DNA of 64,000 nucleotides from an uncultured Desulfobacter sp. (GTDB lineage Bacteria > Desulfobacterota > Desulfobacteria > Desulfobacterales > Desulfobacteraceae). The DNA is taken from positions 917,583 through 981,582 of the forward strand of contig OY762069.1 in the NCBI GenBank assembly GCA_963665095.1, read 5' to 3'. Shown piece by piece: positions 2,621-47,109 of this stretch (positions are counted from its first letter, which is position 1; each line of letters opens with the position of its first letter). The notes below the pieces were generated by a model. That model was not told the origin of the DNA, searched no databases, and saw only the letters and a program-made list of their open reading frames with translations. The translations under genes were made by a program, and so were the position numbers.

Positions 2621-2749
2621 GCCGAACAAGCCAATGAACCCGACCGGGCTTACTGCGCGGCTTTTCGAAGGTGTCTGGTTAATGAAAATTTAAACTTTTA
2701 CCTGGGCTTCTGCGGTTTAAAAGCCCGGCGGGTTATCTATACGTTATGT
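2621..2749 (+). repeat. integron attC site, long type A (attC1)
   Basis: R'' is gccGAAC. The arms ccgaccgggctt / aagcccggcgg are inverted, and R' GTTATGT lies at 2743-2749. The central region (cttactgcgcggc..ggtttaaaagcc) is shared with sites at 7484, 21933, 24493 and 38802. Confidence 0.75.
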
Positions 2750-3165
2750 GCAAAAATCACAAAATGGAAATATTCAAAAAAATAGTAAGAGCTTTTTCAA
2801 TTTTTATTTTGATAACATCTATTTCAGTTTTGTTTGATAATAAGATATGGGAATATAATATTTTGTTTTTCTCAAATCTGATTAATTCAAAATATATTTT
2901 ATTAGCTTTAACGAGTTCCTCAATTATAATATCGTTGGTTTTTCGTTTATATCATGGAATGATTATGTCAACTCACTTGAAGGACTCAGAAGATGCTCAT
3001 AAGATTTCATTTTTTGGAATGACCAATGTGGCTCACTACCCTAGTATATTGAATTCTATAGGGCTAAAAGCACGAAGAGAAATGATCTATTGGAATACAA
3101 CAATTGTCATTTTATTGTTTAGTGCAGCGTTCATCATTGGAAAAGTGTTGGCAGAAATCACATAA
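2746..3165 (+). CDS. small hydrophobic membrane protein, unknown function (cassette)
   Basis: ORF with 3-4 predicted hydrophobic helices. The ATG at 2746 lies inside R'; an alternative start is ATG 2764. Confidence 0.55.
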   Translation: MCKNHKMEIFKKIVRAFSIFILITSISVLFDNKIWEYNILFFSNLINSKYILLALTSSSIIISLVFRLYHGMIMSTHLKDSEDAHKISFFGMTNVAHYPSILNSIGLKARREMIYWNTTIVILLFSAAFIIGKVLAEIT

Positions 3166-3217
3166 CCAATAAGGATTGATGCGACCTGACAAGGTCGCTT
3201 TCAATCCATTGTTCAAG
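3162..3217 (+). repeat. attC-like hairpin (either the attC of the preceding cassette or the terminal hairpin of the IS91-like element)
   Basis: ATAACCAATAAGGATTGA..loop..TCAATCCATTGTTCAAG. The same stem and the trailing GTTCAAGAAGCC recur at 8351-8422, next to the second IS91-like copy. Confidence 0.6.
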
Positions 3218-3467
3218 AAGCCCGGGTTTCATATGGGTAAAGATTGATTGTGGTGCAGGCGGGGTAGGCAAGCACAGGGTGGAAATTGATAAAAAGTGCT
3301 TGCCGGTATGCTTTAACTTTTCAATTTTGAATAATTTTGACGTCGTTCTTTGAAAAACAGGACAGGTTCAGGGTTCGTTTTTCGGCCGCAGGACGTACTC
3401 GTCCCTGACGGTTCAGAAAACCGTTAAAAAACATGTATCCTAAAACCCGTTCCCTTTACGTTGAAGC

Positions 3468-4568
3468 CTATCCGAACCCAAAATCAGGCAACGGTAAGGG
3501 GCGGATATAGTAGATGTGACATCTGAGCTTGAGGCCCGCCCCGCATTCCGGGCAAATTGGCTTTGGCGAAGATTTGGGTGTTTCTATAGGCCGCTGTTCT
3601 TTGAACCCCAGGGTTGACTGGATAAGTGAACGGATTCGTTCAAGCGGGATGGAAGATCCCGGTCCCATGAAGCCATAATATCGGATTTTCATAAATCCTG
3701 TGGGCAGGACATGCTGAAGGAACCTGCGCATAAATTCCATTGTATCAAGGGTCATTTTCCGCAGGCGCCGGCTGCCGGGCTTTTTATAATGGAACATCAC
3801 CTTCTGCTGATCGTAATGGATAATCCGGTAGTCGGAAATCGCCACTTTGAACACATAGGGGGCCAGGTATTTGATACTGTGGTGACTGGAAACGGCCTGG
3901 GAATTTACGTTGAACGGCTTTGACCAGACGTCCGGAGCAATACTTTGAAGTATTCCGGCCGTATTCAGCTGGGTTTTAAGCTTTGCTCTGAACACCTTGG
4001 ACATGGCTTTGACCGGAGCGAAGAAGGCCGGACGGCAGGGATGCCATTTGCCGTCGGTCCGGGAATATGCTCCGCCGGGAACAACATAATGGATGTGCGG
4101 ATGATACTGCATGGTCCGTCCCCAGGTGTGAAGGACTCCAAAAAAGCCGGGCAGATCACCGCCGATGAATTTGCTGTCCCTGGCAAAGGCTTTAAGTGTC
4201 TGTGAGGATGCCGCAAACAGTGCCGCATAGGCCTCCTTCTGGTTGCTTCGAAACAGAGCGCGCAATTGTTCCGGGATGGTAAATGTTATCAGAAAATGAG
4301 GGCCCGGCAGTTGTCGTTCCAGCTGCCGGTCACGCCACTGGCGGGTTTTATGGTACTGGCATATGGGGCAGTGACGGTTTCCACAGGAACGAAAACCGAA
4401 ATGTATCCGGCCGCAGCCGGTACAATCATAGACCACCAGGCCGCAGGCAGACGTCCGGCAGGAAATGATTGCCTTCAAGGCTTTTATGTGATTTTTTGGA
4501 ATGCGGGTTTTATACCGATGGAGGTATTCCCGGGCTGACCGGGCAAAAATGTTTTGAATGGCTCCCAT
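3468..4568 (-). CDS. IS91-family (Y2 HUH, rolling-circle type) transposase
   Basis: N-terminal Zn-binding motifs (CTGCG.., CGNRHCPIC), HUH region HTWGRTMQYHPHIHYVVPGG, and a C-terminal tyrosine region KYLAPYVFKVAIS. Confidence 0.85.
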   Translation of the reverse strand: MGAIQNIFARSAREYLHRYKTRIPKNHIKALKAIISCRTSACGLVVYDCTGCGRIHFGFRSCGNRHCPICQYHKTRQWRDRQLERQLPGPHFLITFTIPEQLRALFRSNQKEAYAALFAASSQTLKAFARDSKFIGGDLPGFFGVLHTWGRTMQYHPHIHYVVPGGAYSRTDGKWHPCRPAFFAPVKAMSKVFRAKLKTQLNTAGILQSIAPDVWSKPFNVNSQAVSSHHSIKYLAPYVFKVAISDYRIIHYDQQKVMFHYKKPGSRRLRKMTLDTMEFMRRFLQHVLPTGFMKIRYYGFMGPGSSIPLERIRSLIQSTLGFKEQRPIETPKSSPKPICPECGAGLKLRCHIYYIRPLPLPDFGFG

Positions 4569-4570
4569 GG

Positions 4571-5440
4571 CTACACCTCCTTCATCAGATCATTGATAAG
4601 TCCGCAGGCGTGTTCATGCCCCTGGGTGGTCAGATGCAGGTAAACCATGGTGGTGGTCAGACTGCTGTGGCCCAGATACTGCTGGATGCGCCGGATGTTG
4701 ACACCTGCTTCGAGCAGATGGGTGGCGTAGCTGTGGCGAAGGGTGTGGATGGTGACCCGTTTTGTGATGGGCAAAGAGGTCAGTGTCTGTCTCAGGGCTC
4801 CCCTGACGGAATTGCTCCTCATGGGTTCTTCTGCTGTTGAGGCTTCTTTGCCGTTGCGTCCAAGTTTTGGAAAGATCAGTTTGGGGTTGCGATGGGTGGC
4901 CCAGTATTCACGCAGAATAAAAAGTGTCTTTTCAGGCAGCGGCACGTATCGGTCCTTTGCGCCTTTGCCCCGATGGACATGGATGAACATGCGCTGGCTG
5001 TCAATGTCCCTGACCTGGAGGCTCAATCCCTCATTGAGCCTGAGACCGCAGGAGTAGACAGTGGTCAGGTAGGCTTTGTTCCAGGGTGTCCGGACAGCAG
5101 TAAGAATGGACTTAACCTCGTTAATACTGAGTACGGATGGTAACCGCTGTTCCCGTTTGGCATTAATCAGGGCAAGCGTATGCCAGTCCCGCTGCAGCAC
5201 ATTGATGAAGAAGAACTTTATGCCGCTGTAGCAGATACGCATGGTGGCGGCAGACCATTGATCAACGTTTTTGCGATGGAGAAAATAATCCTGCAGTTCC
5301 CGCTCGGTGATTTCATCAGGGGTTTTGCCGAAGAAATCGACCAGCATACGGATAGCGCGGGTGTAGTTCTTTTGAGTGGAAGTGCTCATCCCGGCAAGTT
5401 GCAGGGCCCTCATTGATTGTTGATAATAATCGCTCATCAT
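4571..5440 (-). CDS. tyrosine recombinase (XerC/D-like), first gene of the IS91-like element
   Basis: [22 protein letters not shown] and [14 protein letters not shown] motifs. An AAGGAG RBS lies 5 nt before ATG 5440. The longer listed ORF (to 5632) runs into intron RNA. Confidence 0.85.
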
Positions 5441-5572
5441 ACCGTCTCCTTTCATGTGAAGGGTTAATTGGATTGGCGTCCAGATACGATACGATGAAAA
5501 TGACGGGCAATGCAACTTGCCGATTTTATTAATTAGAGTAGTTGTTTGGCTGCCGCGTAGCGGCTTACTTGA

Positions 5573-7483
5573 ATCGGGATAGGACTCCCCATCACTGAGG
5601 AGCCCTCCCACACCACCCGGCATACGGATCACGTACCAAGGCGGTTCGGCTGATTTCGGAAATCAGTTCCCGGGCAGATATAATCCTTTTTTGACAAAAT
5701 ACATTTCAGGCATGGCAATGGCCACCCACTTGATTTTGCTCATGTGCCAGTACTTTTTACGGGCGTTACCGCAAAGCATGGCGTCCCCATGCGAAATACC
5801 AAGTTTTTCCAGGTTACGAACCCTGGTTCCAGGGTTTTTCCATTGTTTCCAGACAAGACTTCTCAGCCGTCGCAGTATCCAGACCTTGAGTTCTTTCAGA
5901 AAATAGAGGGTTTCCGTGAGCCGGAAATAACCCCACCATCCACGAATGTACTGGTTCAAGTCCTGAATCACCTGCCACAGGCTTTTGCCCCGTTTACGGC
6001 TGGTTAATTCCCGGACCTTGTCCTTGAACCGTTTCATGCTCTTGGCGTGAATCCGGATCTTGGACTGCCCACACATTTGAAAATATGTGAATCCTAAGAA
6101 TTTGCTCAGCCAGGGTCTGCTGACAGCACTTTTCTCCTGGTTTACTTTGAGCTTGAGTTTCACCGTCAGAAACCGGGTGATACTCTCCATAACCCTTTCG
6201 GCAGCCTTGCGGCTTTTGCAGAAAATCATAAAATCATCGGCATACCGAACATACCGGTGGCCTCGTTTCTCCAACTCTTTATCCAGTTCATCCAGGACAA
6301 TATTGGACAGCAGCGGAGAAAGAGGACCTCCCTGGGGAGTCCCTTCTTCTGTAGGCACCGTGACGCCCGAGACCAGCACACCAGACCTCAGATATTGTCG
6401 TATTACCTTCAATACGCGCTTATCTTTTATTCTTCTGGCGAGTCTGCTCATCAGGCGGTCGTGCGAAACTCGGTCAAAAAATTTCGACAGGTCCATATCA
6501 ACGACATAGGTATAACCTTCAACCATGTACCTTTTACCCTGCATTACCGCATCGTGTGCGGATCTGCCGGGCCTGAACCCATAACTGTGTTCAGAGAAAA
6601 AGGGGTCCCAGATCTGTTCCAGGACCTGGGATATGGCCTGTTGAATAAACCGGTCAAGCACCGTGGGTATTCCAAGTAAACGGATTCCGCCGTCTGGTTT
6701 GGGGATTTCCTTCCTTTTAACCGGTAGCGGTTTGTGCCTGCCGTTAAGCAGGTCTTGTTTGATTTCATGCCAGTGCTTTGCAAGGTAGCTGCCAAGCTGG
6801 CTGGTTTTCATACCATCCACCCCAGGGGCACCCTTGTTTGCACAGACATGTTTCCATGCCAGGATAATGTTGTTGCGTTCAAGGATCATCTCCATTAACC
6901 GGGCATTGTTTCCCAGACGTTCGGCAATTTGTGACGCTGGAAACAGTTCCATCTGCTGTGGCGATCTGTTCACAAGTACACATCTCCTATTTGTCGTTAT
7001 CATTTACCCGGACCATTCGGCCCGGGCACCGTTCAGGCCTTCACCGGGGTGAGTCCTCCCTGGTTTGCAGGGCTCGTTTCCTCCGCCTACTATGCCTTCT
7101 GCTGACTTCTCCCATGCGGTCAGAGTCGGTTACCCGCCCCTCAGCCGTTACGGCACATGGGAGATCTCCCGGGGTAAACACGTGTCTTTCAGTACGTGAA
7201 TGCCGGATTTACGGACATACCCTGTAATGGATAGAGGACTTCACCTTGTTGTGCAGGCTCGTCCCGGTATGTGCGCCTTATATCCGATTCCTGTACGTCA
7301 TCCCGTACTTTTGCGGTACCTTGCCTCAGCAAGGCGGCTTCCTTCCGAAGCACCGTCACCGGTACCCCGTTGCACTACCACTACACCCTTCGCCTCCATC
7401 CGGCTGGGCCTAAGACTTGCCAAACGCATTGAAATCGTTTACGTTTGACTCACTTTTAAGAACACGTGCCGTGCCCGGCACAC
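5573..7483 (-). mobile_element. group II intron, family 1 (IIC-attC-like), full length, inserted in the bottom strand of attC3
   Basis: The 5' end is GTGTGCC (reverse complement at 7477-7483). The RT ORF sits in domain IV, with domain V/VI-like hairpins at 5580-5650. Flanks reconstruct ..CTTGA|ACAAAAC.., which is TTGT|T on the bottom strand. Confidence 0.8.
5663..7003 (-). CDS. group II intron reverse transcriptase/maturase (no En domain)
   Basis: RT blocks with RYADDFMIF, and the maturase X motif RGWWGYF. Length is 446 aa. Confidence 0.9.
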   Translation of the reverse strand: MITTNRRCVLVNRSPQQMELFPASQIAERLGNNARLMEMILERNNIILAWKHVCANKGAPGVDGMKTSQLGSYLAKHWHEIKQDLLNGRHKPLPVKRKEIPKPDGGIRLLGIPTVLDRFIQQAISQVLEQIWDPFFSEHSYGFRPGRSAHDAVMQGKRYMVEGYTYVVDMDLSKFFDRVSHDRLMSRLARRIKDKRVLKVIRQYLRSGVLVSGVTVPTEEGTPQGGPLSPLLSNIVLDELDKELEKRGHRYVRYADDFMIFCKSRKAAERVMESITRFLTVKLKLKVNQEKSAVSRPWLSKFLGFTYFQMCGQSKIRIHAKSMKRFKDKVRELTSRKRGKSLWQVIQDLNQYIRGWWGYFRLTETLYFLKELKVWILRRLRSLVWKQWKNPGTRVRNLEKLGISHGDAMLCGNARKKYWHMSKIKWVAIAMPEMYFVKKGLYLPGN

Positions 7484-7608
7484 ACAAAACGCTGGAGCGG
7501 GACCAGGCTTACTGCGCGGCCTTTCGGGAGTTCCTGGTTCAGGAAAATTTAAACTTTTGTCGGAGTTTTTGGGGTTTAAAAGCCTGGCCCCTCAGCTCCC
7601 CGTTGTGG
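7484..7608 (+). repeat. integron attC site, long type A (attC3; its R'' is split by intron A and abutted by IS91-like copy 1)
   Basis: ACAAAACgctggagcgggaccaggcttactgcgcgg...ggtttaaaagcctggcccctcagctccccGTTGTGG. Confidence 0.75.
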
Positions 7609-7676: not shown

Positions 7677-8045
7677 ATGCGAAAATTAATGACAAAGCAC
7701 TTTGCGAAATGGGCTTCAAAGCAAAAAATACTGATCGATGACTTGGAAACAGCATTGGAAGAAGTCGGTAGTGGAAATTACGAAGCAAATTTGGGCGGAC
7801 ACATTTACAAAAAAAGAATTCGGTTCCCTGGTCAAGGCAAAAGCGGTAGTGGAAGAACGATTGTTTGCTATAAAAAAGGGAGCAGAATTATTTTCATCCA
7901 TGGATTCTCAAAAAATGAAAAATCAAACCTTTCACCCAAAGAGCTATTTGTCTTCAAGGAACTTGCTAAAATTTTACTTTCATTTTCTGAAAGGGAAATT
8001 GATATAGCAGTCCAAAATGGTGATTTAAAAGAGGTGGCAACATGA
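7677..8045 (+). CDS. RelE/ParE-superfamily toxin (HigB-like), TA cassette copy 1
   Basis: Small basic protein (KKRIRFPGQGKSGSGRTIVCY..IFIHGFSKNEKSNL). It overlaps the downstream XRE antitoxin by 4 nt. Confidence 0.75.
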   Translation: MRKLMTKHFAKWASKQKILIDDLETALEEVGSGNYEANLGGHIYKKRIRFPGQGKSGSGRTIVCYKKGSRIIFIHGFSKNEKSNLSPKELFVFKELAKILLSFSEREIDIAVQNGDLKEVAT

Positions 8046-8347
8046 GAAAATCAATTTCAGATTCAATTACCGAAACCGTAAGGGACTTAAATAAAAGTGG
8101 GCTTGTGGATGACATTACTTTAAGAAATATTGAAAAATTATGTCTTCCAGAAGTTAAAGACTATTCCCCCAAAAACATAACCGAAATCCGAAAAAGATTT
8201 AATTTAAGCCAAGCTGCGTTAGCAAGCGTTTTCAATATTAGTACCTCTACTGTACAGAAGTGGGAACAGGGGAATAAAAAACCTACAGGAGCCTCAAGGA
8301 AATTGTTGGATATCATGGAAAGAAAAGGCTTAGAGGCTTTAATATAA
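8042..8347 (+). CDS. XRE-family HTH antitoxin (HigA/NadS-like), copy 1
   Basis: HTH segment LSQAALASVFNISTSTVQKWEQGNKKP. It is translationally coupled to the toxin. Confidence 0.8.
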   Translation: MRKSISDSITETVRDLNKSGLVDDITLRNIEKLCLPEVKDYSPKNITEIRKRFNLSQAALASVFNISTSTVQKWEQGNKKPTGASRKLLDIMERKGLEALI

Positions 8348-8350
8348 CTC

Positions 8351-8417
8351 GCACAACAAAATAAGGATTAGTAACCGTGCTGAGGCACGAAGCTCGGTAC
8401 TAATCCTTTGGTTCAAG
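8351..8417 (+). repeat. attC-like hairpin (attC4, or the terminal hairpin of IS91-like copy 2)
   Basis: cACAACAAAATAAGGATTAGTA..loop..TACTAATCCTTTGGTTCAAG. Confidence 0.6.
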
Positions 8418-8663
8418 AAGCCGCGGGTGTATAGGGGGAAAGGTTACCGGTTTTCTGGATGGGTTAATGATCAGGTCTGATGAAAACTTAAAAAACGGCC
8501 TTTCTTTTGATGTGAAAACCAGAAGTCCGGCCGATTTTCAGTTGTTAAAACCCGGTTCAAAACCTTAGGTATCTGCAATATTGCGCACGAATAGCGCAAC
8601 ATGCCTGGTGATAGATCAGGCTGTTTGTAAAAAAGGCCCAAACCGGGTCAAAAAAATGTGCAG

Positions 8664-9749
8664 TTACCGGGGTTTGCCCCGGGATTCAGGTTTTACAAAG
8701 AAAATGAATTTCAAATCATGTCCGCAATGGCTGCATTTAATGCCGGGGATTGCAGGCTCCCGGATTTCAGTAAAAAGCGCAATAATGTCATGGATGAATG
8801 AGATCAGTTCACGGATTTTTTCAATGGGTAATGCACTGTTGGGATTAAGAAATCCATAATGCCGGATTTTCATAAATCCCTTGGGAAGAACATGTTGCAA
8901 GAACCTTCTGATAAATTCCATGGCATCCAGAGCCATGGTTTTCCATTTTTTCTTTTCACGATCCTTGTACGAAAATTTAATGACACCATTTTCAATGCTT
9001 TTGATGCGGTTATTGGAGATGGCCACCCGGAAAACATATCTTGAAAGATATCGCAGGCAATTTTGTCCCTGCCCCACTGATTGGCTGTCAATCACCCACT
9101 GCTGTTTCCAGACGGCCGGATCAATTTTGTTGAGCAGTCCGGCTTTTTTCATCGCATTCTTGAATTTGGCTTTGAAAATAATCTCCAAGGGTTTTGTGTG
9201 AACAAATAAATCCTGCCTGGAAGCAAGCCATAGGTTTTTACCGGATAAAGCACCACCGGGGATGATCAGATGTAAATGGGGGTGATACTGGAGCATGCCG
9301 CCCCATGTGTGGAGACCGGCCAGGTATCCAATTTGGTCCGATCCGACAAACCGCTTGTCTTGTGCTAATTTTTTCAATGCTTTATTGGTGCATGAAAACA
9401 GGGCGCTGTAGGTTTGTCTTTGATGTGATCTTACAACGTCCCGAAGACCTTGCGGCAGTGTGATCGTTAACAAAAAATAGTGAGTCGGCAGCAATTTTTT
9501 CATTTGCTGAACAAGCCATTGATCTGCTTTACTCTGTTGACAGTTGGGGCAATGGCGGTTGTCGCAGCAGCAGTGGATCAGATGCAGATTTTTGCAGTCG
9601 CTGCATTCATACACCATTGTACCAAAGGAGCCGCTTCGGCACTGAATGATATCCCGGATGGTTTTTTTATGGGCCTTGGGCATTCGATCCCCATAAAGTG
9701 CCATATATTGGGCGCCATACATCTGAAAGATTTTTTGAATGGCGCTCAT
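8664..9749 (-). CDS. IS91-family (Y2 HUH) transposase
   Basis: CDNRHCPNCQ, HTWGGMLQYHPHLHLIIPGG and RYLSRYVFRVAIS. Confidence 0.85.
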   Translation of the reverse strand: MSAIQKIFQMYGAQYMALYGDRMPKAHKKTIRDIIQCRSGSFGTMVYECSDCKNLHLIHCCCDNRHCPNCQQSKADQWLVQQMKKLLPTHYFLLTITLPQGLRDVVRSHQRQTYSALFSCTNKALKKLAQDKRFVGSDQIGYLAGLHTWGGMLQYHPHLHLIIPGGALSGKNLWLASRQDLFVHTKPLEIIFKAKFKNAMKKAGLLNKIDPAVWKQQWVIDSQSVGQGQNCLRYLSRYVFRVAISNNRIKSIENGVIKFSYKDREKKKWKTMALDAMEFIRRFLQHVLPKGFMKIRHYGFLNPNSALPIEKIRELISFIHDIIALFTEIREPAIPGIKCSHCGHDLKFIFFVKPESRGKPR

Positions 9750-10621
9750 GACAACACCCCCTGCATGACTTTGGAAACCCTGTCATTGGAATCAACCCGG
9801 GCCTGTGTGGTCACATGCAGATAAATCATGGTACTTTTAAGGGTTTTATGACCCAATATTTTTTGAACATGCCGTATGGGGATATTGGCTTCGAGCAGAT
9901 GAGTTGCATAGGCATGGCGGAATACATGAGGGTGGACATGTTTTTTAAACTTCATGCGTTTTAAAGTGGATCGTAAAACGCCTTGAACACCACTTTGGCT
10001 CACATGATTTTCGGCATATTGGGCATCTTTACCGCCATTGCGGCCCAGGGCAGGGAAAATCCATTTAGAATTGCGATGGGTTTTATAGTAGTCTCGCAAA
10101 GCCGACAGGGTTATTGGGGGTAAGGGGACGGTCCTGTCCCGGAAACCCTTTCCTCCGTGAATATGCACAAGTCCCCTGTCAGAAAGGATATCCTTGACCT
10201 GAAGCGTTGTTGCTTCCCTCAAACGCAGGCCCATGGAATATAAGGTCAAATAAAATGTATAACTTTGTACGGTGGGAAGGGCATATATAATTTTCCTGAC
10301 TTCCTCCAGGCTCAGAATAGTTGGTAAGGTCTCCTCGCGCTTCCATTGGATTTCGTTGAAAAGGTTCCAGGATCTGACCAGGGTTCTGCTGAAAAAATGT
10401 TGGATGCCGGAATAACTGATACGCAGTGTGGCTGCACTCCAGCCAAGTTCGTTTTGACAGCTAAGCCAATATTGACGCAGCTGTTCTTCGCTGATATCTT
10501 CTAAGGGTTGATTGTAAAACCGCTGCAGCTTTAAAACTGCGCCGGTATAGGATTGAATGCTGCGGTCAGCATATCCTGCTAACTGGAGGTCTTCTTTAAA
10601 ACGTTTGATTAATTTGCTCGT
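9746..10621 (-). CDS. tyrosine recombinase; full-length frame but no ATG/GTG/TTG at the expected start (ACG after an AAGGAAG RBS)
   Basis: The listed ORF (167 aa) starts at an internal TTG. The frame stays open upstream for a further 124 codons that encode the N-terminal core-binding domain (TSKLIKRFKEDLQLAGYADRSIQSY..). C-terminal motifs [15 protein letters not shown] and LGHKTLKSTMIYLH are present. Confidence 0.65.
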   Translation of the reverse strand, partial: TSKLIKRFKEDLQLAGYADRSIQSYTGAVLKLQRFYNQPLEDISEEQLRQYWLSCQNELGWSAATLRISYSGIQHFFSRTLVRSWNLFNEIQWKREETLPTILSLEEVRKIIYALPTVQSYTFYLTLYSMGLRLREATTLQVKDILSDRGLVHIHGGKGFRDRTVPLPPITLSALRDYYKTHRNSKWIFPALGRNGGKDAQYAENHVSQSGVQGVLRSTLKRMKFKKHVHPHVFRHAYATHLLEANIPIRHVQKILGHKTLKSTMIYLHVTTQARVDSNDRVSKVMQGVLS

Positions 10622-10746
10622 GGTATCTTCCTTTCTTCTTTAACCTTGTCGGGCGGAAGATACCGACCTGCAAACCGGTAATTAGAAGATACCATGAGCA
10701 ATGTAATTGAACAATGCTGCGAGGCGGAGCCTGCGCGTAGCGCTTA

Positions 10747-10871
10747 CTTGAACAAGCCGTTGCAGCCGATCCGGGGTTCTAGCGGCTTTTTGAAAGTGCT
10801 CGGTTTTCGAAAATGTTTGGCTTTTACAATCTGCTCGGCACAAGCCCCGGGCGGCTGAACTACACGTTATA
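10747..10871 (+). repeat. integron attC site, long type B (attC5)
   Basis: cTTGAACaagccgttgcagccgatccgggg...ccccgggcggctgaactacacGTTATA. The central region is shared with the site at 18712-18818. Confidence 0.75.
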
Positions 10872-13126
10872 GTGCGACACGATGTTGCATGATTGTATGT
10901 ATAGGAGGTAAATGTAAGACACTGAATATACTCGGTGTATCCCCACCGGTTCCCTAGGTGAGCGTGCTATCGTTGCGCTGATGACGGGGTGCGAAGCCTC
11001 ACCGACAATGTACCGAATCGGGTTTGAATGGCGACAGGAGAACCCCTCCGGAAATCCCATCCGGTTAAGGGCTAGGGTCGGACAATATGGCAAGATTAAT
11101 CGAAGAGCTTTAAGCGCCGTCAGTGAGCGCCTAACCTACTGGGATTAACAGGTTATATGTATACTTCCCTGCGTTTGTATACATGAACAGGATGCAAGTC
11201 TTCTAACTGCTTGCACGGGATCTTAAGTTTCATCGGCGTAGAGGCCTGCCTAAGTTGTCCATTAAGAGCAATCATGTGGAACGTGGAAACGTTGTCACTC
11301 CCCATGTGCAATACATGGAAAGCTAACCGCAAGGCAAGCCTGTGGAGGGGCAGCAGTAAGAATTCGGAAAAAAGCAAACGCCGTTTTGTAATGAAACGGA
11401 TAGAGCATGAAACATGGCTCACGTAAAACCCAAAACCTTCGATTTTGGAGACATGCGTGCAGACGTCCGATTGGTGTTGACTTGCGAGAGAATTTGGAGA
11501 ACCGCTTAAGATGGGAAAGCAAATGACGGCTTCGGCTGGTGCACCTGTCGACTCTGCTAAGAAATGGGCATCCATTGTTTGGAACAAAGCCCGGGCTGAA
11601 GTTAGAAGGCTGCAAATGCGTATCGCAAAGGCTGTAAAGGAAGAAAGATGGGGCAAAGTCAAAGCCCTTCAGTACTTACTTACTCATTCGTTCTACGCCA
11701 AGGCCTTGGCTGTCAAACGAGTGACCTCAAATAAAGGGAAAAAGACTCCAGGCGTAGACGGTGTTTTATGGAAAGGCGCCCGAGCCAAATGGCAGGCTGT
11801 TTTCAGCCTGCAAAGACGAGGTTATAGACCGCAACCGCTAAGGCGGATTTATATCCCCAAAAAAAACGGTAAGAAACGTCCTTTAAGCATTCCAACAATG
11901 CTTTGCAGAGCTATGCAGGCGCTGTTCAAGTTAGCCTTGGCCCCAGTAGCGGAGACCATAGGAGATCGTAATTCTTACGGCTTCCGTGAAGGCCGCAGTT
12001 GTGCAGATGCAATTGCAGCAGCGTTCAATGCACTCTCCAAGCCTAATTCGGCTACATGGATATTGGAAGCGGACATCAAAGGGTGTTATGACAACATCAG
12101 TCAGGAATGGATGTTGGAAAATATCCCCATGGACAAAGTCGTTCTTAAAAAGTGGTTGACGGCAGGGTATGTGGAAGACGGCAAGCTATACCCTTCGCGC
12201 AAAGGAACCCCACAGGGCGGGATTATCAGTCCCACCTTGTCGAATTTAACCCTCGACGGACTGGAAAAAGCCGTTCATGATGCAGTTCCCCGCCGATGCA
12301 GGGTTAATTTTGTTCGATATGCAGATGACTTTATCGTCACAGGCAAGTCCAAACGCCTGCTCGAAGAACAGGTCAAACCCGCAGTCGAAGCGTTTCTAAC
12401 TGAACGTGGTCTATCATTATCTGAAGAAAAGACCATGATCACGCATATAACAGACGGATTTACGTTCCTTGGCCAAACTTTTCGAAAAACCGGAAATGTA
12501 CTGCACATCACCCCGGCAAAAAAGGGAGTTCTCGCCTTTAAAGAAAAGCTCAGTGAACTGATCCATAAACATGCCGGCGGTCCATTGGAACCATTGGTCA
12601 AAAAGTTAAACCAGACCCTCCGGGGTTGGGGAAACTATCACCGGCACGTAGTCTCATCGGAAACATTTTCTCTTATTGATACGTTTGTTTACGAACAGCT
12701 GTGGAGAATGATTAAAAAGCGTCACCGGAAGAAATCCTCAAAATGGTTGAAAAACCGTTACTGGACTGACGGAAAACACAAGTGGATATTCACTGTCAAG
12801 AGCCGAAATAAAAAAGGGCCTTGCAGATATCACGTCATTCACCTAATTTCACTAGGGATAAAACGATATATCAAAATTAAAGCAGATGCAAATCCATATG
12901 ATCCCGAATACAGCTATTATTTCTGGCGTAGACGGAATCAAAAGGAGTCACGGTTACTCCCTACGCTGTCAGCCAGGGAATACCGCCAAACGCAAGCTGC
13001 ATGAGGTAAACAGCCGGGGCGTCCCACAAGGTCGTCCTTTATAAACGCTTGAGCCGTATGACGGGAAACTGTCACGTACGGTTCTTAGGGGGGAAAGGGG
13101 CAGAGATGCCCCTGACCTACCCGATC
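10872..13126 (+). mobile_element. group II intron, family 2a, full length, inserted on the top strand directly after attC5 R'
   Basis: The 5' end is GTGCGACACG. Domain V is GAGCCGTATGACGGGAAACTGTCACGTACGGTTC (13052-13085), followed by a domain VI hairpin, and the 3' end is ..CTACCCGATC. Confidence 0.85.
11511..13004 (+). CDS. group II intron reverse transcriptase/maturase
   Basis: GVDGV, PQGGIISP, VRYADDFIV and LRGWGNYHR motifs. Length is 497 aa. Confidence 0.9.
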   Translation: MGKQMTASAGAPVDSAKKWASIVWNKARAEVRRLQMRIAKAVKEERWGKVKALQYLLTHSFYAKALAVKRVTSNKGKKTPGVDGVLWKGARAKWQAVFSLQRRGYRPQPLRRIYIPKKNGKKRPLSIPTMLCRAMQALFKLALAPVAETIGDRNSYGFREGRSCADAIAAAFNALSKPNSATWILEADIKGCYDNISQEWMLENIPMDKVVLKKWLTAGYVEDGKLYPSRKGTPQGGIISPTLSNLTLDGLEKAVHDAVPRRCRVNFVRYADDFIVTGKSKRLLEEQVKPAVEAFLTERGLSLSEEKTMITHITDGFTFLGQTFRKTGNVLHITPAKKGVLAFKEKLSELIHKHAGGPLEPLVKKLNQTLRGWGNYHRHVVSSETFSLIDTFVYEQLWRMIKKRHRKKSSKWLKNRYWTDGKHKWIFTVKSRNKKGPCRYHVIHLISLGIKRYIKIKADANPYDPEYSYYFWRRRNQKESRLLPTLSAREYRQTQAA

Positions 13127-13159
13127 AATAGATATGTTAAATAAAATTGGAGCAAACAA

Positions 13160-14632
13160 ATGGAAGAGCAAAAAACACATAGGCTGTGGGTTCCTGTTGA
13201 ATTCAGTCAAGAATGGCTTGAGTGTGATACTTCTACGATAGATGATATATCCCCTTCATGGATTGACAGAAGGGAAATCCTTCAAACTAACTCAAAAGAA
13301 TATCAGGAATTTATTACCGAACTCAAACGTGAACATGCAATTGAGACCGGAATTGTAGAACGAATGTACGATCTTGAAAAAGGCATAACTGAGACATTTA
13401 TCAAAAAAGGGTTTGTTGAATCATACATTAGTCATAATGATACAAACGTTCCAGTTCCGAAATTGCTTTCTCATTTATCCGATCATCTTGATGCAGTTGA
13501 TTTTGTCTTTGATGTAGTTAAAGAAAATAGAGATTTAACAATTGGTTTTATAAAAGAACTTCATGCACTCGTAACTCGTAACCAGGAGTATGCCGAAGGA
13601 AGAGACCAATTTGGCAGTAGAACTAAAATAGATCTGAGAAAAGGTGCTTTCAAAATCCTTGAAAATAATCCAACTCGTGAAGATGGAACTAAAATATTAT
13701 ATTGTCCACCTGATCATGTTCAGGCCGAAATGGATAATCTGATTTCTATTTACAATGATGCCGAGAATAAAAACATCCATCCATTAATTTGTGCTACCTG
13801 GTTTCACCATGCATTCACTACAATTCACCCATTTCAAGATGGCAATGGTCGTATTGCAAGACTAATTGCAAGTTTGATTTTGATTAAACATGGCCTTTTT
13901 CCTTTTACAGTTCTAAGAGAAGAGGCCAAAGCTAAATATATTGATGCTCTTGAAAAGGCCGATGCACATGAATTTCAACCTCTAATAGACTATTTTGCCG
14001 AAGTCCAAAAAAGACATATTGAAAAGGCTCTAAATCTAAAAGAGGTTTCAAGCTCATCATTTGATGAAGTAGCAGATATATTTTCAGGCAAGATTGAGAA
14101 TTGGCAAAAGAAAAAGGTTGCTGAGAGAGAGAAACTGCTTGATAAAGCCAGAATAGATGTTTTTAACTTTTGCCTCAAACATTTGAATCAGATTTCTGAT
14201 CAACTTAGCGCCAAACTCAATGGAAATGCGAACATTACTATTCAAAAATGTTCCCCAGATAAGGATGAAAGACAAGATTTTTATTATGGTCAAATAATTA
14301 AATACGCTAAGAAACATGATTACTATTTTAACAGGAATTTTCCAAAGGGTTGGTTAACTTTTAGAGTTGAATTAGCAGAAAATAAAAAATATCAACTTTG
14401 TGTTACTATCCACCACTATGGCTATGAGGATAGCACCTTAGCTATTGGAGCATTTCTTGAATATTTGATACCTCATGAAAGCAATGATCGAATAGACGAA
14501 GCCCTTCCCTTAGAAATTAAACCTCATGTTATTTCCCTGACTGGAGATATAATGACGAAAGAAAAGAACATCGCAGTTTTTATAAAAAATGCAGTTACCT
14601 TAACTATGGCTCAAATTGCAAGTGAACTATAG
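13160..14632 (+). CDS. Fic/DOC family protein (490 aa)
   Basis: Canonical Fic motif HPFQDGNGRIARL, with GGAG RBS upstream. Confidence 0.85.
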   Translation: MEEQKTHRLWVPVEFSQEWLECDTSTIDDISPSWIDRREILQTNSKEYQEFITELKREHAIETGIVERMYDLEKGITETFIKKGFVESYISHNDTNVPVPKLLSHLSDHLDAVDFVFDVVKENRDLTIGFIKELHALVTRNQEYAEGRDQFGSRTKIDLRKGAFKILENNPTREDGTKILYCPPDHVQAEMDNLISIYNDAENKNIHPLICATWFHHAFTTIHPFQDGNGRIARLIASLILIKHGLFPFTVLREEAKAKYIDALEKADAHEFQPLIDYFAEVQKRHIEKALNLKEVSSSSFDEVADIFSGKIENWQKKKVAEREKLLDKARIDVFNFCLKHLNQISDQLSAKLNGNANITIQKCSPDKDERQDFYYGQIIKYAKKHDYYFNRNFPKGWLTFRVELAENKKYQLCVTIHHYGYEDSTLAIGAFLEYLIPHESNDRIDEALPLEIKPHVISLTGDIMTKEKNIAVFIKNAVTLTMAQIASEL

Positions 14633-17905: not shown

Positions 17906-18818
17906 TATAACAAAACGCTGCTCGTGCCCAGATAAATCCGAATCGTTGGGATTCCACGGAATAGGAGGATGAAACTCGATATTGTTACCCAGTGGGTGAA
18001 AGTCCCACATGAGCAAAGCATAGCCGGCAGCTCATTAGTGAAATCCACAGGCAAAACTGGTAACGGAAGTCTGATGCTGGATGGAACAAGATTGCAGGCT
18101 CTGTACTGAGCCCCGAAAAATGTATAGTTGTGGTCCACTAGGATAAACCCTGCTTGCAGGGGGAAAGCCGACGCATTGTAGCGTGACGGAAGGCAGCAGA
18201 CTTACAGATGCTATGGCAAGCCTGTAAGTCACCACCGGGGTCTTCGACCAGGGCATGTTCTCAAAGGGGTAGCTCAGGAACTGGGGAGAGCCGGTTGGTT
18301 CCTTGCAGAAACAGAACGGTATCAGGAGTTCCAGCCATGGGCAAAATCCCGGCATCTGTATGGAAACCCTATCCTGCAGATGAGTTCACCACTGGTGAAG
18401 ACACAAACGTTAAAGCAGGGCAATACGCCACGAAAGCCTGGAAGCACTGGCTTGGCCGAAGGCACCGAAACGGTAAACTTAACTTCAAGAAGTTTAGCAG
18501 ACTTCTTAATTGGTACCCATTACCGCGGCCTCGAATTGTTCACAATATCTAAAAGGACCTGCAGGGCAGCAAAGTTATGCGCCGATCAGGGTGTCGCCTG
18601 ATTGGTTGACGGCTCGGTAAAAAGAGCCTGAATCGAGGAACCGTATGAGGGAAATCTTCACGTACGGATCTGTGGGGAGGGCGTCGGGTAACCGATGCCT
18701 TTACCCGGAAGGCCGACCCGGGGTTCTATCGGCTTTTCGAAAGTCCTTGGTTTTCGAAAAACCTTGGCTTTTACAATCTGCTCGGCCAAGCCACGGGCGG
18801 CTGAACTACACGTTATGT
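17906..18818 (+). repeat. integron attC site, long type B (attC8), interrupted by a family 3 intron
   Basis: The 5' part is ctATAACaaaacgctgctc (17906-17923). The 3' part is gccgacccggggttc...ggcggctgaactacacGTTATGT (18712-18818). Confidence 0.7.
17924..18711 (+). mobile_element. group II intron, family 3, ORF-less deletion derivative
   Basis: The 5' ~430 nt and 3' ~250 nt are collinear with the copy at 20167-21932. Domain V is GAACCGTATGAGGGAAATCTTCACGTACGGATC. Only the last ~40 codons of the RT remain (..YATKAWKHWLGRRHRNGKLNFKKFSRLL..). Confidence 0.7.
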
Positions 18819-25698: not shown

Positions 25699-26067
25699 AT
25701 GCGAAAATTAATGACAAAGCACTTTGTGAAATGGGCTTCAAAGCAAAAAATACCAATCAATAATTTAGAAACAGCATTGGAAGAAGTCGGTAGCGGAAAT
25801 TACGAAGCAAATTTGGGTGGTCACATTTACAAAAAAAGAATTCGTTTCCCTGGTCAAGGCAAAAGAGGTAGTGGAAGAACGATTGTTTGCTATGAAAAAG
25901 GAAGTAGAATCATTTTTATCCATGGTTTCTCAAAAAATGAAAAATCAAACCTTTCACCCAAAGAGCTATTTGTCTTCAAGGAACTCGCTAAAATTTTACT
26001 TTCTTTTTCTGAAAGTGAAATTGATATAGCGGTCCAAAATGGTGATTTAAAAGAGGTGGCAACATGA
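25699..26067 (+). CDS. RelE/ParE-superfamily toxin (HigB-like), TA cassette copy 2
   Basis: It differs from the 7677..8045 product at 7 of 122 aa. Confidence 0.75.
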   Translation: MRKLMTKHFVKWASKQKIPINNLETALEEVGSGNYEANLGGHIYKKRIRFPGQGKRGSGRTIVCYEKGSRIIFIHGFSKNEKSNLSPKELFVFKELAKILLSFSESEIDIAVQNGDLKEVAT

Positions 26068-26369
26068 GAAAATCAATTTCAGATTCAATAACGGAAACCG
26101 TAAGGGACTTAAATAAAAGTGGCCTTGTGGATGACATCACTCTAAGAAATATAGAAAAATTATGTCTTCCGGAAGTTAAAGACTATTCCCCAAAAAAAAT
26201 AACCGAAATTAGAAAAAAATTTAATTTAAGCCAAGCCGCATTAGCAAGCGTTTTCAATATTAGCACCTCTACTGTACAGAAATGGGAACAGGGTAATAAA
26301 AAACCTACAGGAGCCTCAAGGAAATTGTTGGATATCATGGAAAGAAAAGGCTTAGAGGCTTTAATATAA
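26064..26369 (+). CDS. XRE-family HTH antitoxin, copy 2
   Basis: It differs from the 8042..8347 product at 2 of 101 aa. Confidence 0.8.
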   Translation: MRKSISDSITETVRDLNKSGLVDDITLRNIEKLCLPEVKDYSPKKITEIRKKFNLSQAALASVFNISTSTVQKWEQGNKKPTGASRKLLDIMERKGLEALI

Positions 26370-26372
26370 ATT

Positions 26373-27126
26373 CGCACAATAGGGGCAGGACTCCCCATTA
26401 CTGAGGAGCCCTCCCACACCATCCGGCATACGGATCTCGTACCAAGGCGGTTCGGCTGGTATGAATAAAATCAGTTGTAGGTTATCCCACCGATTTTATC
26501 GGGTTTTGGGCAAAGTCTTGCTATGGAAATTTCGGCCACTGCCGCATTATTCCCATAAAATCCTTTTACTTACTCACCACAACCATTTACCCAAGCCATT
26601 CGGCCCGGGTACCGTTCAGGCCTTCATCGGGGTGAGGCCTCCGGGTGTACTTCTCCCATGCGGTCAGGACCAGTTACCCGGCCCTCAGCCAATCCGGCAC
26701 ATGGGAGATCTCCCGGGGTAAACACGTGTCTTTCAGTACGTGAATGCCGGATTTACGGACATACCCTGTAATGGATAGAGGACTTCACCTTGTTGTGCAG
26801 GCTCGTCCAGGTATGTGCGCCTTATATCCGATTCCTGTACGTCATCCCGTACCTTCGTGGTACCTTGCCTCAGCAAGGCGGCTTCCTCCCGAAGCACCGT
26901 CACCGGTACCCCGTTGCACTACCACTACACCCTTCGCCTCCATCCGGCTGGGTCTAAGACTTGCCAAAGGCATTGAAATCGTTTACGTTTGACTCACTTT
27001 TAAGAACACGTGCCGTGCCCGGCACACACAAAACGCTTCAGGTCGAAAGACCTTGGTTTCTGAAAAGAATTTAATTCGGGGAAGTCCTTGGTTTTAGTCT
27101 CCGGGCGGCTGAGCTCCCCGTTCTCG
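26373..27126 (+). repeat. integron attC site (attC15), R'' interrupted by an ORF-less family 1 intron
   Basis: cgcaca|[intron]|ACAAAACgcttcaggtcgaaagaccttgg...ccgggcggctgagctccccGTTCTCG. Confidence 0.7.
26379..27027 (-). mobile_element. group II intron, family 1, ORF-less (649 bp)
   Basis: It is collinear with intron A at both ends. Domain IV keeps the RT start codon and the last codons, but ~1.2 kb of ORF is replaced by ~110 nt. The flanks give TTTTGT|TGTGCG on the bottom strand. Confidence 0.75.
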
Positions 27127-38234: not shown

Positions 38235-38940
38235 AAAGGTGCGGTTGATACACCGCTTACCATTATTCCCATAAAATCCTTCTACTTACTCACCACAACC
38301 ATTTACCCAAGCCATTCGGCCCGGGTACCGTTCAGGCCTTCATCGGGGTGAGGCCTCCGGGTGTACTTCTCCCATGCCAGGGAGGCCCGGCTCGTTTCCT
38401 CCGACTACTATGCCCTCTGCTGACTTCTCCCATGCGGTCAGGACCAGTTACCCGGCCCTCAGCCAATCCGGCACATGGGAGATCTCCCGGGGTAAACACG
38501 TGTCTTTCAGTACGTGAATGCCGGATTTACGGACATACCCTGTAATGGATAGAGGACTTCACCTTGTTGTGCAGGCTCGTCCCGGTATGTGCGCCTTATA
38601 TCCGATTCCTGTACGTCACCCCGTACCTTCGTGGTACCTTGCCTCAGCAAGGCGGCTTCCTCCCGAAGCACCGTCACCGATACCCCGTTGCACTACCACT
38701 ACGCCCTTCGCCTCCATCCGGCTGGGCCTAAGACTTGTCAAATGCTTTAAAATTCATTACATTTGACTCACTTTTAAGCTCACGTGCCGTGCCCGGCACA
38801 CACAAATCGCTGGAGAGGGACCAGGCTTACTGCGCGGCCTTTCGGGAGGGCCTGGTTCAGGAAATTTTATCTTTTTATCGGGAGTTTTTGGGTTTAAAAG
38901 CCTGGCCCCTCAGCTCCCCGTTAACTCCCCTAAAAAAAAC

Positions 38941-45852: not shown

Positions 45853-47109
45853 ATGACAGAAAATCAGAAAAAAGAGGTTGCCGTGTTCAGGTTTGGGGTC
45901 ATTTGTGAATTTGTGACCGGAACAAATTTTGATTACGGTGAAAAAGAACGAATTTTACAGCAGAAGTGCGCCCGCAAATGGTCCATCCCGTATTCTGGAA
46001 GGACCAGGCTTTCCAGAAGTACGATTCTGGGATGGGTCCGGCAGTATAACGGTCGAATAGAGTCTCTTTACCCCAAAGACCGTTCAGACCAGGGAAAATC
46101 AAGGGTATTCGATGACGAGACTGCATCTCAACTAATCAAACTCCGGTTAGACCAGCCTGATGCGACAGTCGATACATTGATCTGTTCACTTCAAAAAACT
46201 ACATGCCAGACATACAGTCCATCCAGTGTATACCGTTTTTTACGCGGCCGGGGGCTAATGAACACGGCCCGGCCAGAGGATAGAAGAAAGTTTGAAGCCC
46301 CGCACCCCAATGATATGTGGCAAAGCGACGTCATGCACGGCCCTACAGTCCTGGTTCAGGATAAGCAAAGAAAAACGTACCTGATTGCCATTATGGACGA
46401 TCATTCCAGGCTGGTTACGGCTGCAGGTTTTTATTTATCTGAGAATCTGAAGACCTATCTTATGGTGCTGGAGCAGGCTTTTTTGAGCCGTGGGCTTCCC
46501 CGCAAGCTGTATGTAGATAACGGTCCTGCGTTCAGATCCCATCATTTAAAATATGTAGCAGCGTCTCTGTCCATCGCTTTAATCCATGCAAGGCCATATA
46601 AGCCCCAGGGGAAAGGTAAAATCGAGCGCTGGTTCAGAACGGTTCGGCTTCAGTTTCTGCAAAGATTTACAGGTAAGACCCTGGATGATCTGAATGGGGC
46701 ATTTGAGAAGTGGCTTCATAATGAGTACCATCAGCGTAAACACAGCTCCACAGGCGAATCACCGTTTAAAAGATTTACCTCGGCCATGGAGTGCATCCGT
46801 ACCGCCCCACCGGATCTGAAAGACCACTTCCGCAAAACCGCCCGGCGCAAGGTGGCAAAGGACCGAACCATCACCCTTGACGGCAACATGTTTGAGGCCC
46901 CGGTTGCGCTGATCGGCAGACATGTGGATGTAAAGTACCATGAGGACACCCCTTTGCAGGCTGAAGTTATCTATAAAGCAAAGTCTTATGGCTTGTTAAC
47001 CCCGGTGGACCTTGCTGTGAACTGTCGGGTCAAGCGGCACCGCTGGAACGAAAATGATATCCGGATTATGCCTGAACCCTCAAATTACAAGGGAGGGCAA
47101 CTGTTATGA
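45853..47109 (+). CDS. DDE transposase, integrase-core (rve) type, TniA/MuA-like
   Basis: D in MWQSDVMHG, D in LYVDNGPAF, and E in GKGKIERWF. Confidence 0.8.
   Translation: MTENQKKEVAVFRFGVICEFVTGTNFDYGEKERILQQKCARKWSIPYSGRTRLSRSTILGWVRQYNGRIESLYPKDRSDQGKSRVFDDETASQLIKLRLDQPDATVDTLICSLQKTTCQTYSPSSVYRFLRGRGLMNTARPEDRRKFEAPHPNDMWQSDVMHGPTVLVQDKQRKTYLIAIMDDHSRLVTAAGFYLSENLKTYLMVLEQAFLSRGLPRKLYVDNGPAFRSHHLKYVAASLSIALIHARPYKPQGKGKIERWFRTVRLQFLQRFTGKTLDDLNGAFEKWLHNEYHQRKHSSTGESPFKRFTSAMECIRTAPPDLKDHFRKTARRKVAKDRTITLDGNMFEAPVALIGRHVDVKYHEDTPLQAEVIYKAKSYGLLTPVDLAVNCRVKRHRWNENDIRIMPEPSNYKGGQLL

Follow-up and report, generated by a model that had tools for sequence, protein, structure and literature searches.

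IS91-family elements carrying a tyrosine recombinase, inserted at the R'' box of integron attC sites and probably guided there by an attC-shaped junction of their own ends

When a hairpin lies at the border between a gene cassette and an insertion sequence (IS), to which of the two does it belong, and what brought the IS to that place? The question is raised by a stretch of 64,000 nucleotides from an uncultured Desulfobacter sp. (contig OY762069.1, positions 917,583 to 981,582 of the forward strand; the whole stretch is called the window below, and positions are counted from its first letter), in which two minus-strand elements of about 2.4 kb each, composed of a tyrosine recombinase gene followed by a gene for an IS91 transposase of the Y2 type, are lodged in an integron cassette array. 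A first-pass annotation of this DNA had described them as IS91-family elements with a tyrosine recombinase, docked on attC at the R'' box, a description borne out by what follows, and had left two readings of the hairpin at their end: either it is the attC of the preceding cassette, or it is an end of the IS that resembles attC. The comparisons presented here show that elements of this kind insert antisense at the AAC of the attC R'' box, without target duplication, and make it probable that they are guided by a junction of their origin (ori) and terminus (ter) ends which has the shape of attC.

Copy 1 extends from 3167 to 5572 and copy 2 from 8358 to 10753 (initially placed at 3168-5570 and 8360-10749), with an ambiguity of 3 nt that arises because AAC is common to target and element; no third copy is present within the window. 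The first-pass annotation was right about the two divergent minus-strand copies, about the order recombinase then Y2 transposase and about the adjacent or overlapping genes (a 2-nt gap in copy 1, a 4-nt overlap in copy 2), as well as about ends that are conserved despite divergent interiors: the latter have a DNA identity of about 47%, with 41% identity between the transposases, whereas the ends are nearly invariant, reading on the plus strand AATAAGGATT..stem-loop..AATCC(A/T)TTG(G)TTCAAGAAGCC at the left and GC(C)GC-GTA-GC(G)GC-TTACTTGAA at the right of both copies. Along the element strand, the components follow one another as the ter repeat GTTCAAGTAAGC with a palindrome of 4-5 bp, the recombinase, the transposase, the inverted repeat GCTTCTTGAAC and a two-part hairpin, the origin end or oriIS. 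In copy 1, all on the minus strand, these are the terminus end or terIS (5552-5572; palindrome GCCGC-GTA-GCGGC and terminal repeat TTACTTGA, the last two bases of which, AC, are displaced to 7484-7485), the Xer-like tyrosine recombinase (4571-5440, 289 amino acids; Pfam Phage_integrase and Phage_int_SAM_4), the transposase (3468-4568, 366 amino acids), the ori-proximal terminal repeat GGCTTCTTGAAC (3211-3222), which is complementary to the ter end, and the oriIS hairpin (3167-3210), which reads AAT-GGATTGA-stem/loop-TCAATCC-TTATTG and scores 78.2 bits with a covariance model of the hairpin (R2). In copy 2, likewise on the minus strand, they are terIS (10733-10753; palindrome GCGC-GTA-GCGC and terminal repeat TTACTTGAAC), the recombinase (9746-10621), the transposase (8664-9749, 361 amino acids), the ori-proximal terminal repeat (8411-8422) and a hairpin of the GGATTAG..CTAATCC type (8358-8410; 34 bits with model R2). 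The change of the terIS stem from 5 bp (GCCGC, copy 1) to 4 bp (GCGC, copy 2) is matched on both arms, so that the palindrome is kept; taken by themselves, the hairpins fold at -15.3 kcal/mol (z = -4.9) in copy 1 and at -13.5 kcal/mol (z = -2.9) in copy 2.

Both transposases carry the Zn_Tnp_IS91 and Y2_Tnp domains and score 360 bits (copy 1) and 351 bits (copy 2) with the NCBIfam equivalog model for IS91, NF033538, the cutoff of which is 125 bits; in the transposase alignment (A1), neither the HxH residues nor the two tyrosines vary. By NF033538 and Pfam they are HUH-Y2 transposases of the IS91 family, for which a rolling-circle route of transposition is assumed, and are only 25-28% identical to IS91 and IS1294-like proteins. 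The unlike ends of that family are found as well, ter being GTTCAAGTAAGC with GCCGC-nnn-GCGGC and ori the conserved hairpin.

The ownership of the hairpin is settled by relatives. With the transposase as query and each species represented by one genome, 79 loci were obtained, which span Desulfobacterota, Nitrospirota, Omnitrophota, Anaerolineae, spirochaetes and others. Almost no variation affects GTTCAAGTAAGC at their left end or the right-hand motif GCTTCTTGAAC, and several short contigs begin exactly at GTTCAAGTAAGC; in about 60 loci, the right end is laid out as CTTGAAC, 3 nt, GGATTGA, a stem-loop of about 20 or 55 nt, TCAATCC, 5-6 nt and then the flank, which mostly begins GTTA. The stem of the hairpin is 93% paired, with six pairs changed on both sides, a level reached by none of 500 shuffles. 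The 7.85-Mb chromosome of Desulfobacterium sp. OY764894.2 holds at least nine copies, 97-100% identical over exactly 2,481 bp, all of which share exactly GTTCAAGTAAGCC...hairpin...CCTAAAGG (the right end reading ...GGGCTTCTTGAAC-AAA-GGATTG..stem-loop..CAATCC-TAAAGG), while their flanks are unrelated from copy to copy and contain no repeat. Relatives of the copy 2 lineage, with transposases 73-85% identical, carry the GGATTAG..CTAATCC hairpin beside different flanks, and model R2 has matches only at IS ends or in tandem or solo units abutting an IS, those within the window being the two copies alone. Collecting the copies, as had been proposed at first, confirms that the hairpin accompanies the element at many sites, also outside integrons (OY764894.2). 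Since it moves with the element to unrelated sites, and since no such hairpin stands in the empty site of a relative described below, the hairpin is the oriIS end of the element and not a cassette attC; of the two initial readings, the second is the one upheld.

That relative resides in a clinical class 1 integron. In the E. coli IncC plasmid NZ_LT985243.1 (L080, record 10947-13297), found by a plasmid search with the recombinase, the order is cmlA1-aadA1-[IS91 transposase + integrase, inverted]-qacEdelta1-sul1, and the junctions read GTCTAAC|AAATAAGGATAGG..hairpin.. and ..GCGGCTTCGTTCAAC|AATTCGTTCAAGCCGAC. Deleting the element in silico restores the native aadA1-attC-qacEdelta1 order; for the 200-nt join, the best records include single-piece matches at 100%, and the plasmid records with ≥99% identity to it number 1,552. 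The comparison proves for this relative that no target is duplicated, that the hairpin belongs to the IS and that insertion took place at the R'' of attC_aadA1. The element itself was recovered by nucleotide search of the plasmid collection only from that plasmid, apart from a 254-bp match in a Shewanella plasmid. The window's own cassettes provide no direct empty site (one metagenome scan for an empty copy of the higBA-like cassette interrupted by copy 2 returned a single contig, L089, with a group II intron in the same R''), for which reason the E. coli relative was used instead. Relatives in Salinivibrio and Photobacterium also lie at the R'' of attC-type sites, and a 96%-identical relative of copy 1 is found in another attC of the window's family, as ..ACATAAC|IS|AAGCCGTTGCAGCC... 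The absence of duplication is seen again in the nine OY764894.2 flanks and in copy 2, the rebuilt site of which, CGCACAAC|AAGCCGTTGCAGCC.., is the usual attC start of this array (compare 2620 and 24495).

When the empty site of each locus is rebuilt by joining its flanks, 53 insertion sites yield the target logo R-Y-M-T-A-A-C, followed by positions typical of the attC L'' region, and many of the rebuilt sites are textbook examples of attC, with the cut exactly at R''. By a crude energy-based structural score, 17 of 51 insertion sites are attC-like, compared with 52 of 711 control YAAC sites (p = 3.6e-7), and 15 rebuilt sites fit the attC pairing with covariation. From these 15, all of which come from genomes other than that of the window, an attC covariance model (R1) was built; RNAalifold gave no structure on the target-site alignment, and the known attC pairing was entered by hand and tested by pair counts. 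A first attC scan, requiring pairing directly beside AAC/GTT, was too strict and was replaced by repeat analysis, the energy score and the covariance model. With the latter, 44 of 46 attC matches in the loci lie on the strand opposite to the IS genes, 17 matches (15 of them training sequences of the model) take the ter heptamer as their R'', and about 20 loci have further attC sites nearby. At 12 of 19 attC-type sites, R'' is immediately preceded by the end of a same-strand ORF (open reading frame) 100 codons or more in length, against 4 of 19 for the mirror arrangement.

The hairpin does not share this profile. The real attC sites of the window score 24-39 bits with model R1, and the two hairpins about 1 bit (3160-3217) and at most 0.8 bit (around 8351-8417); they do not fit the attC profile of sequence and structure (R''-L''..L'-R'), nor do they stay with the cassette ORF. 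The first-pass annotation had found the hairpin to look exactly like a short attC; the likeness is one of shape only, consisting of the AAC...GTT frame, the spacer and the inner stem.

In the window, copy 1 inserted at or within the AAC of the R'' box ACATAAC (3160-3166, plus strand), which fits the target logo and belongs to the attC of the cassette ORF 2746-3165; the TAA stop of this ORF (3163-3165) falls inside the box. Copy 2 inserted at the R'' box GCACAAC (8351-8357, plus strand) of the higBA-like cassette 7677-8347, the same R'' being present in the paralogous cassette, and the attC body and R' (GTTATAG, 10866-10872) which it split off lie at 10754-10872 on the plus strand and are of the same attC subfamily as 18712-18816. 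Model R1 matches 10747-10872 over its full length (27.1 bits, E = 5e-4), with the R'' supplied by the IS heptamer CTTGAAC. The GAAC next to the elements, at first attributed to the R'' of the attC and taken for the target tetranucleotide, is in fact the last part of this terminal repeat. Nor is copy 1 directly followed by an attC, as had been stated: its right end reads CTTACTTGA|ATCGGG..., that is CTTGA|AT, and a minus-strand group II intron (5573-7483; reverse transcriptase/maturase 5663-7003 with RVT_1 and GIIM domains, Rfam RF02001 at 7178-7365) splits the terminal heptamer at CTTGA|AC, so that the displaced AC, the attC body and R' (GTTGTGG, 7602-7608) of the split site, a member of the ~120-nt attC family, are found at 7484-7608 on the plus strand. 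In other R'' boxes, sister introns are found at CGCACA|AT and GGCACA|AT, again at xA|AC. The IS of copy 1 therefore arrived first, and the intron then used the hybrid IS/attC site; the reverse order, in which the IS would have entered an intron/exon junction, was rejected because such a site would be without the AAC of every other insertion and because the intron sits at the same xA|AC as its sister copies. In a Mesorhizobium plasmid (L086, NZ_CP080530.1, about 2373-2410), a group IIC-type intron lies 5 nt past the ter palindrome of an IS, from which it would seem that introns also take the IS terminal hairpin as a stem-loop target.

How attC could be chosen is suggested by the complementarity of the two ends. 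Each of the two repeats, at ter and inside ori, is an inverted copy of the other, with pairing over 12 bp and one bulge, and a simulated ori-ter junction folds at -24.0 kcal/mol (z = -9.2) for copy 1 and at -20.8 kcal/mol (z = -6.95) for copy 2. The heptamers of these repeats differ between clades, being (ori-internal/ter) CTTGAAC/GTTCAAG in the clade of the window, CTTGAAT/ATTCAAG in L048 and L056, GTTCAAC/GTTGAAC in E. coli and Salinivibrio, GTTCAAT/ATTGAAC in Clostridium and, with 6 of 7 positions paired, GCCCAAC/GTTGGAC in Rhizobium; because they change together, the ends are argued to pair, as they would in circular intermediates of the IS91 kind. Head-to-tail hairpin/ter junctions are found, for example in L066.

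The position of the cut is more difficult to assess. Since the empty site and both junctions all contain AAC, the exchange must have taken place somewhere in or beside it. Tandem or solo ori hairpins with ..GG|TTGAAC.. joins occur in several relatives (L002, L004, L013, L050, L051 at its ori end, L066 at 724-776; also L033, L055, L051 and L082), and the same relatives show tandem repeats of 6-7 nt (spacer + GTT) at the ori/target junction, for example TTATGGG four times over; hairpins and repeats are likely to be footprints of repeated events at one site. The joins in L002, L004, L013, L050, L051 and L066 are compatible with |AAC, with A|AC and with AA|C, and could not arise from a cut 3' of AAC on the transferred strand. 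The simple IS91-like reading, in which such a cut makes GAAC the tetranucleotide, is disfavoured, as the tandem and solo units end in GTTCAAC and the internal repeat in GTTCAAG. With a cut at |AAC, the ter tetranucleotides would be CTTG, GTTC and GTCC, just as in known members of the IS91 family, and ori would start a few bases before ATAAGGA, canonical IS91 starting before ATAGGAA; a cut at AA|C would coincide with the IntI crossover position. The invariant feature of the target is AAC after R-Y-M-T, and any match to the IS91 tetranucleotide rule hinges on where the cut falls; of the possible assignments, a target RYMT|AAC with an element that begins at AAC and ends in ...CTTG, as seen on the transferred strand, would fit the rules of IS91 best.

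The mechanism which we consider probable can be outlined as follows. The transposase would release a circle made of the strand antisense to the transposase gene; within it, the ter repeat would pair with the ori-internal repeat to form a 12-bp stem. Stem and hairpin together would take the shape of a folded attC: AAC/GTT would lie in a paired 'R box', followed by a spacer left unpaired and by an inner stem. Since the top strand of a folded attC would offer the same geometry around its own AAC, it could be mistaken for the junction of the element itself and cut accordingly, after which the circle would be joined in; this likeness in geometry would account for the preference for attC. After insertion, the cassette ORF retains its R'', and the remainder of the attC comes to lie beyond the ter end.

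Several points weigh against this proposal. The circle junction is known by inference, none having been observed directly, and the sharing of AAC makes the cut position unreadable from the sequence. The four bases 5' of the target AAC (e.g. GCCT) are only loosely like the CTTG of ter, which departs from the IS91 rule; the count of attC matches at insertion sites is partly circular, owing to the 15 training sequences among the 17. Some insertions lie outside any recognisable attC (L028 and L029, in OY764894.2, and all Nitrospirota copies), and attC structure may favour insertion rather than being required for it. Finally, canonical IS91 needs the transposase alone, and the conserved recombinase is left without a role. 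As regards the Nitrospirota copies, the non-attC flanks past ori in MFD01716 (L055, L058, L060-L063, L068) form a family of their own, GTTG(A/T)AAATT..AT..TT.CA..ATGG.AACT; CRISPR repeats were considered for these flanks and rejected, there being no repeat arrays nearby.

The recombinase is indeed the starting point of the alternative that survives best. In nearly all loci with enough upstream sequence, its gene immediately precedes that of the transposase; the protein is conserved at 56-76% identity and has the catalytic R, K, HxxR, H and Y residues; its conservation argues that it matters to the element. It might then be the recombinase that integrates, by binding the folded junction and a folded attC much as IntI binds attC and exchanging strands at G|TT (= AA|C), the transposase making only the single-stranded circle. 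Besides the linkage, the conservation and the catalytic residues, the junction itself can be cited for this, as its paired box is separated by a spacer from another, conserved one (GGATTGA/TCAATCC), an arrangement that recalls the R and L boxes of attC, and the ..G|TTGAAC... joins exclude a cut outside the trinucleotide and allow one at G|TT; the same joins, however, equally allow an HUH cut 5' of AAC, which gives the IS91-family tetranucleotides mentioned above. The best PDB matches of the protein are the archaeal XerA and VchIntIA, about equally close, with XerD less close, but the recombinases score below every NCBIfam Xer and IntI cutoff (171 bits for TIGR02249, the cutoff being 265), and query residues 179-207 align to residues 180-242 of VchIntIA, about 34 IntI-specific residues being missing, so that the protein does not qualify as an IntI. 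The IntI-specific insert is the part which reads the extrahelical bases of attC. Copy 2 adds a further difficulty: at 10619-10621, its recombinase has ACG in the place of copy 1's ATG, with no ATG, GTG or TTG for 130 codons, although the ORF is intact; the gene may have been inactivated recently, translation may start at a non-canonical codon, or the sequence may contain an error. Canonical IS91 members integrate with the transposase alone (PMC13181058). Integration by the recombinase is judged rather unlikely, yet it is a rival to be taken seriously.

Still more doubtful, and a speculation in several forms, is the idea that this IS91 subgroup, by uniting an HUH rolling-circle transposase with a Xer-like recombinase active on folded single-stranded hairpins, might constitute a second and independent single-strand system of the attC type or a relative of the ancestor of attC/IntI, or else that the ori hairpin might replace attC, making both the IS and the interrupted cassette mobile as cassettes. 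Close to the last form is the possibility that the hairpin works as an attC mimic for the IntI of the host: the cassette would retain a usable site, made up of its own R'', the IS hairpin and GTTCAAG, and the IS body with the native attC would become a cassette which IntI can move. Insertion does yield two units of cassette-like layout, and model R1 accepts the hybrid of CTTGAAC with the native attC body as a full-length attC; yet the hybrid on the hairpin side scores about 1 bit, its R''/R' pairing is limited to AAC/GTT, no IS body preceded by a foreign attC was found, the elements have spread to non-integron sites too, and no intI is present within the window. The lack of solo hairpins serving as cassette attC in the window and in the arrays of the other loci also argues against frequent use by IntI, and a working mimic is accordingly considered very improbable. 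That each preceding cassette has the hairpin as its attC, with the IS always landing just after it at G|TT, is almost certainly wrong: on the plus strand each hairpin does lie directly 3' of a cassette ORF, starts near ..AAC and ends in GTTCAAG, but it travels with the element to many unrelated flanks, the attC family of the host is a different repeat of ~120 nt, the model R1 scores are far below those of real attC sites, the empty aadA1 site has no such hairpin, and model R2 finds none away from an IS in the window or in the loci, barring the tandem and solo units that abut one.

The preferred reading, insertion by an IS91-type mechanism at attC, is set in a context of which the following can be said. 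The cassette array occupies about 0.9-45 kb of the window on the plus strand, and the right third of the window is ordinary chromosome. Imperfect palindromes of ~120 nt form a repeat family 3' of ORFs, including those of toxin-antitoxin cassettes, as seen by repeat analysis; model R1 detects eight attC sites in the window, all eight on the plus strand and one of them the site that begins with the terminal heptamer of copy 2, and these co-oriented sites after promoterless ORFs identify the surroundings as an integron cassette array. No intI was found among the ORFs scanned within the window, hence no intI adjacent to an attI; such a gene may be located to the left of the window; alternatively, this could be an attC cluster without integrase. 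The first recognisable cassette (977-2437) encodes a KAP-family P-loop NTPase, and an attC-model match (982-1061) overlaps its 5' end. Other transposase genes are found at or beyond the right edge of the array, at 45853-47109, 48481-49560 and 58541-60121 (IS481-like, IS1182/IS5-like and IS1380).

Group II introns are abundant in the array (13 Rfam matches). Those on the minus strand (5573-7483, 26378-27033, 35656 onward and about 38384-38800) interrupt attC R'' boxes at xA|AC; the hybrid IS/attC site served as the target of one of them, and another has no ORF. Those on the plus strand (10872 onward, 24627 onward and 27130 onward) begin directly 3' of R'. The higBA-like (RelE/HTH) toxin-antitoxin cassette is present twice, at 7677-8347 and at 25699-26369, with about 90% identity; its common R'' (CGCACAAC) is occupied by the IS in the first case and by a group II intron in the second, and the attC bodies past R'' differ. 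The argument for an IS-borne hairpin that had been drawn from this paralog does not hold in the form given, because CGCACA is directly followed there by the group II intron and not by a different attC.

Among known systems, the closest are the canonical members of the IS91 family, for which absence of duplication, a tetranucleotide next to oriIS, a palindrome with a tetranucleotide at terIS and circular intermediates have been described (PMC13181058). The window-type elements share with IS91, IS801, IS1294 and IS1294b the HUH-Y2 transposase with its N-terminal zinc domain, the unlike ends (a small palindrome by a tetranucleotide at terIS and subterminal palindromes at oriIS), the lack of duplication at short specific targets next to oriIS, and an ori motif, ATAAGGA, which resembles their ATAGGAA; they differ from them in the added upstream tyrosine recombinase gene, in a target which always includes AAC and is preferentially an attC R'' box, and in a terminal inverted repeat of 12 nt, the ori copy of which lies inside a conserved two-part hairpin. 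IS91 elements with an upstream 'phage integrase' gene have the same gene pair and spacing as the window elements. Pairs annotated by PGAP as 'site-specific integrase' and 'IS91 family transposase' occur in Shewanella-like bacteria, Photobacterium, Salinivibrio, Herpetosiphon, Clostridium and rhizobial plasmids, and this pair is likewise annotated on plasmids from Chloroflexota, Vibrionales, Alpha- and Betaproteobacteria and Clostridia. ISSod25 and ISAzo26 are ISfinder elements which we take to belong to this integrase-carrying subgroup. One such element, ISShvi3, has been remarked to adjoin an attC in a Shewanella integron (PMC9229058); beyond this remark, no attC R'' specificity, fixed orientation in arrays or covarying ter/ori pairing was described in the literature searched.

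The IS1111-attC group of the IS110 family likewise invades integron attC sites in one orientation (PMC9229058), but employs a DEDD transposase and RNA-guided target choice (seekRNA; PMC11187229) and has no hairpin ori end. The group IIC-attC introns are, like the window-type elements, strand-specific on folded attC, and those of the window, at xA|AC, lie at most 2 nt from the IS insertion point; they differ in being retroelements, which read the target by RNA-DNA pairing and a stem-loop. With the reaction between attC and IntI, the elements have in common the folded single strand, the paired AAC/GTT box, the spacer and the second paired box, an exchange at or near AAC/GTT and a Xer/IntI-like recombinase; the differences are that the hairpin is not an attC by profile, that the recombinase has no IntI insert, and that the element uses the R'' of its target on the top strand whereas IntI uses R' on the bottom strand. 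In the IS200/IS605 family, of which IS608 is an example, an HUH enzyme acts on single strands with subterminal hairpins, and the cleavage sites are paired with an internal guide at the foot of the hairpin. Such guide pairing matches the covarying heptamers described here; in contrast, IS200/IS605 elements have a Y1 enzyme, transpose by 'peel and paste' without rolling-circle replication and carry no recombinase.

Known invaders of attC are the IS1111-attC elements and the group IIC-attC introns, and the results point to a third kind, with unrelated chemistry, the lineage of which is widespread in Desulfobacterota and other phyla, is present in Vibrionaceae and has already reached a clinical class 1 integron. 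As insertion parts the cassette ORF from its attC, it may freeze or re-wire the mobility of the cassette; moreover, the IS91 family is capable of one-ended transposition carrying neighbouring genes, which could move cassettes out of integrons. The covarying complementary ends, together with the attC-shaped junction, offer a testable model of how an HUH transposon may choose a structured single-stranded target, and give a handle on the role of the recombinase in many members of the IS91 family.

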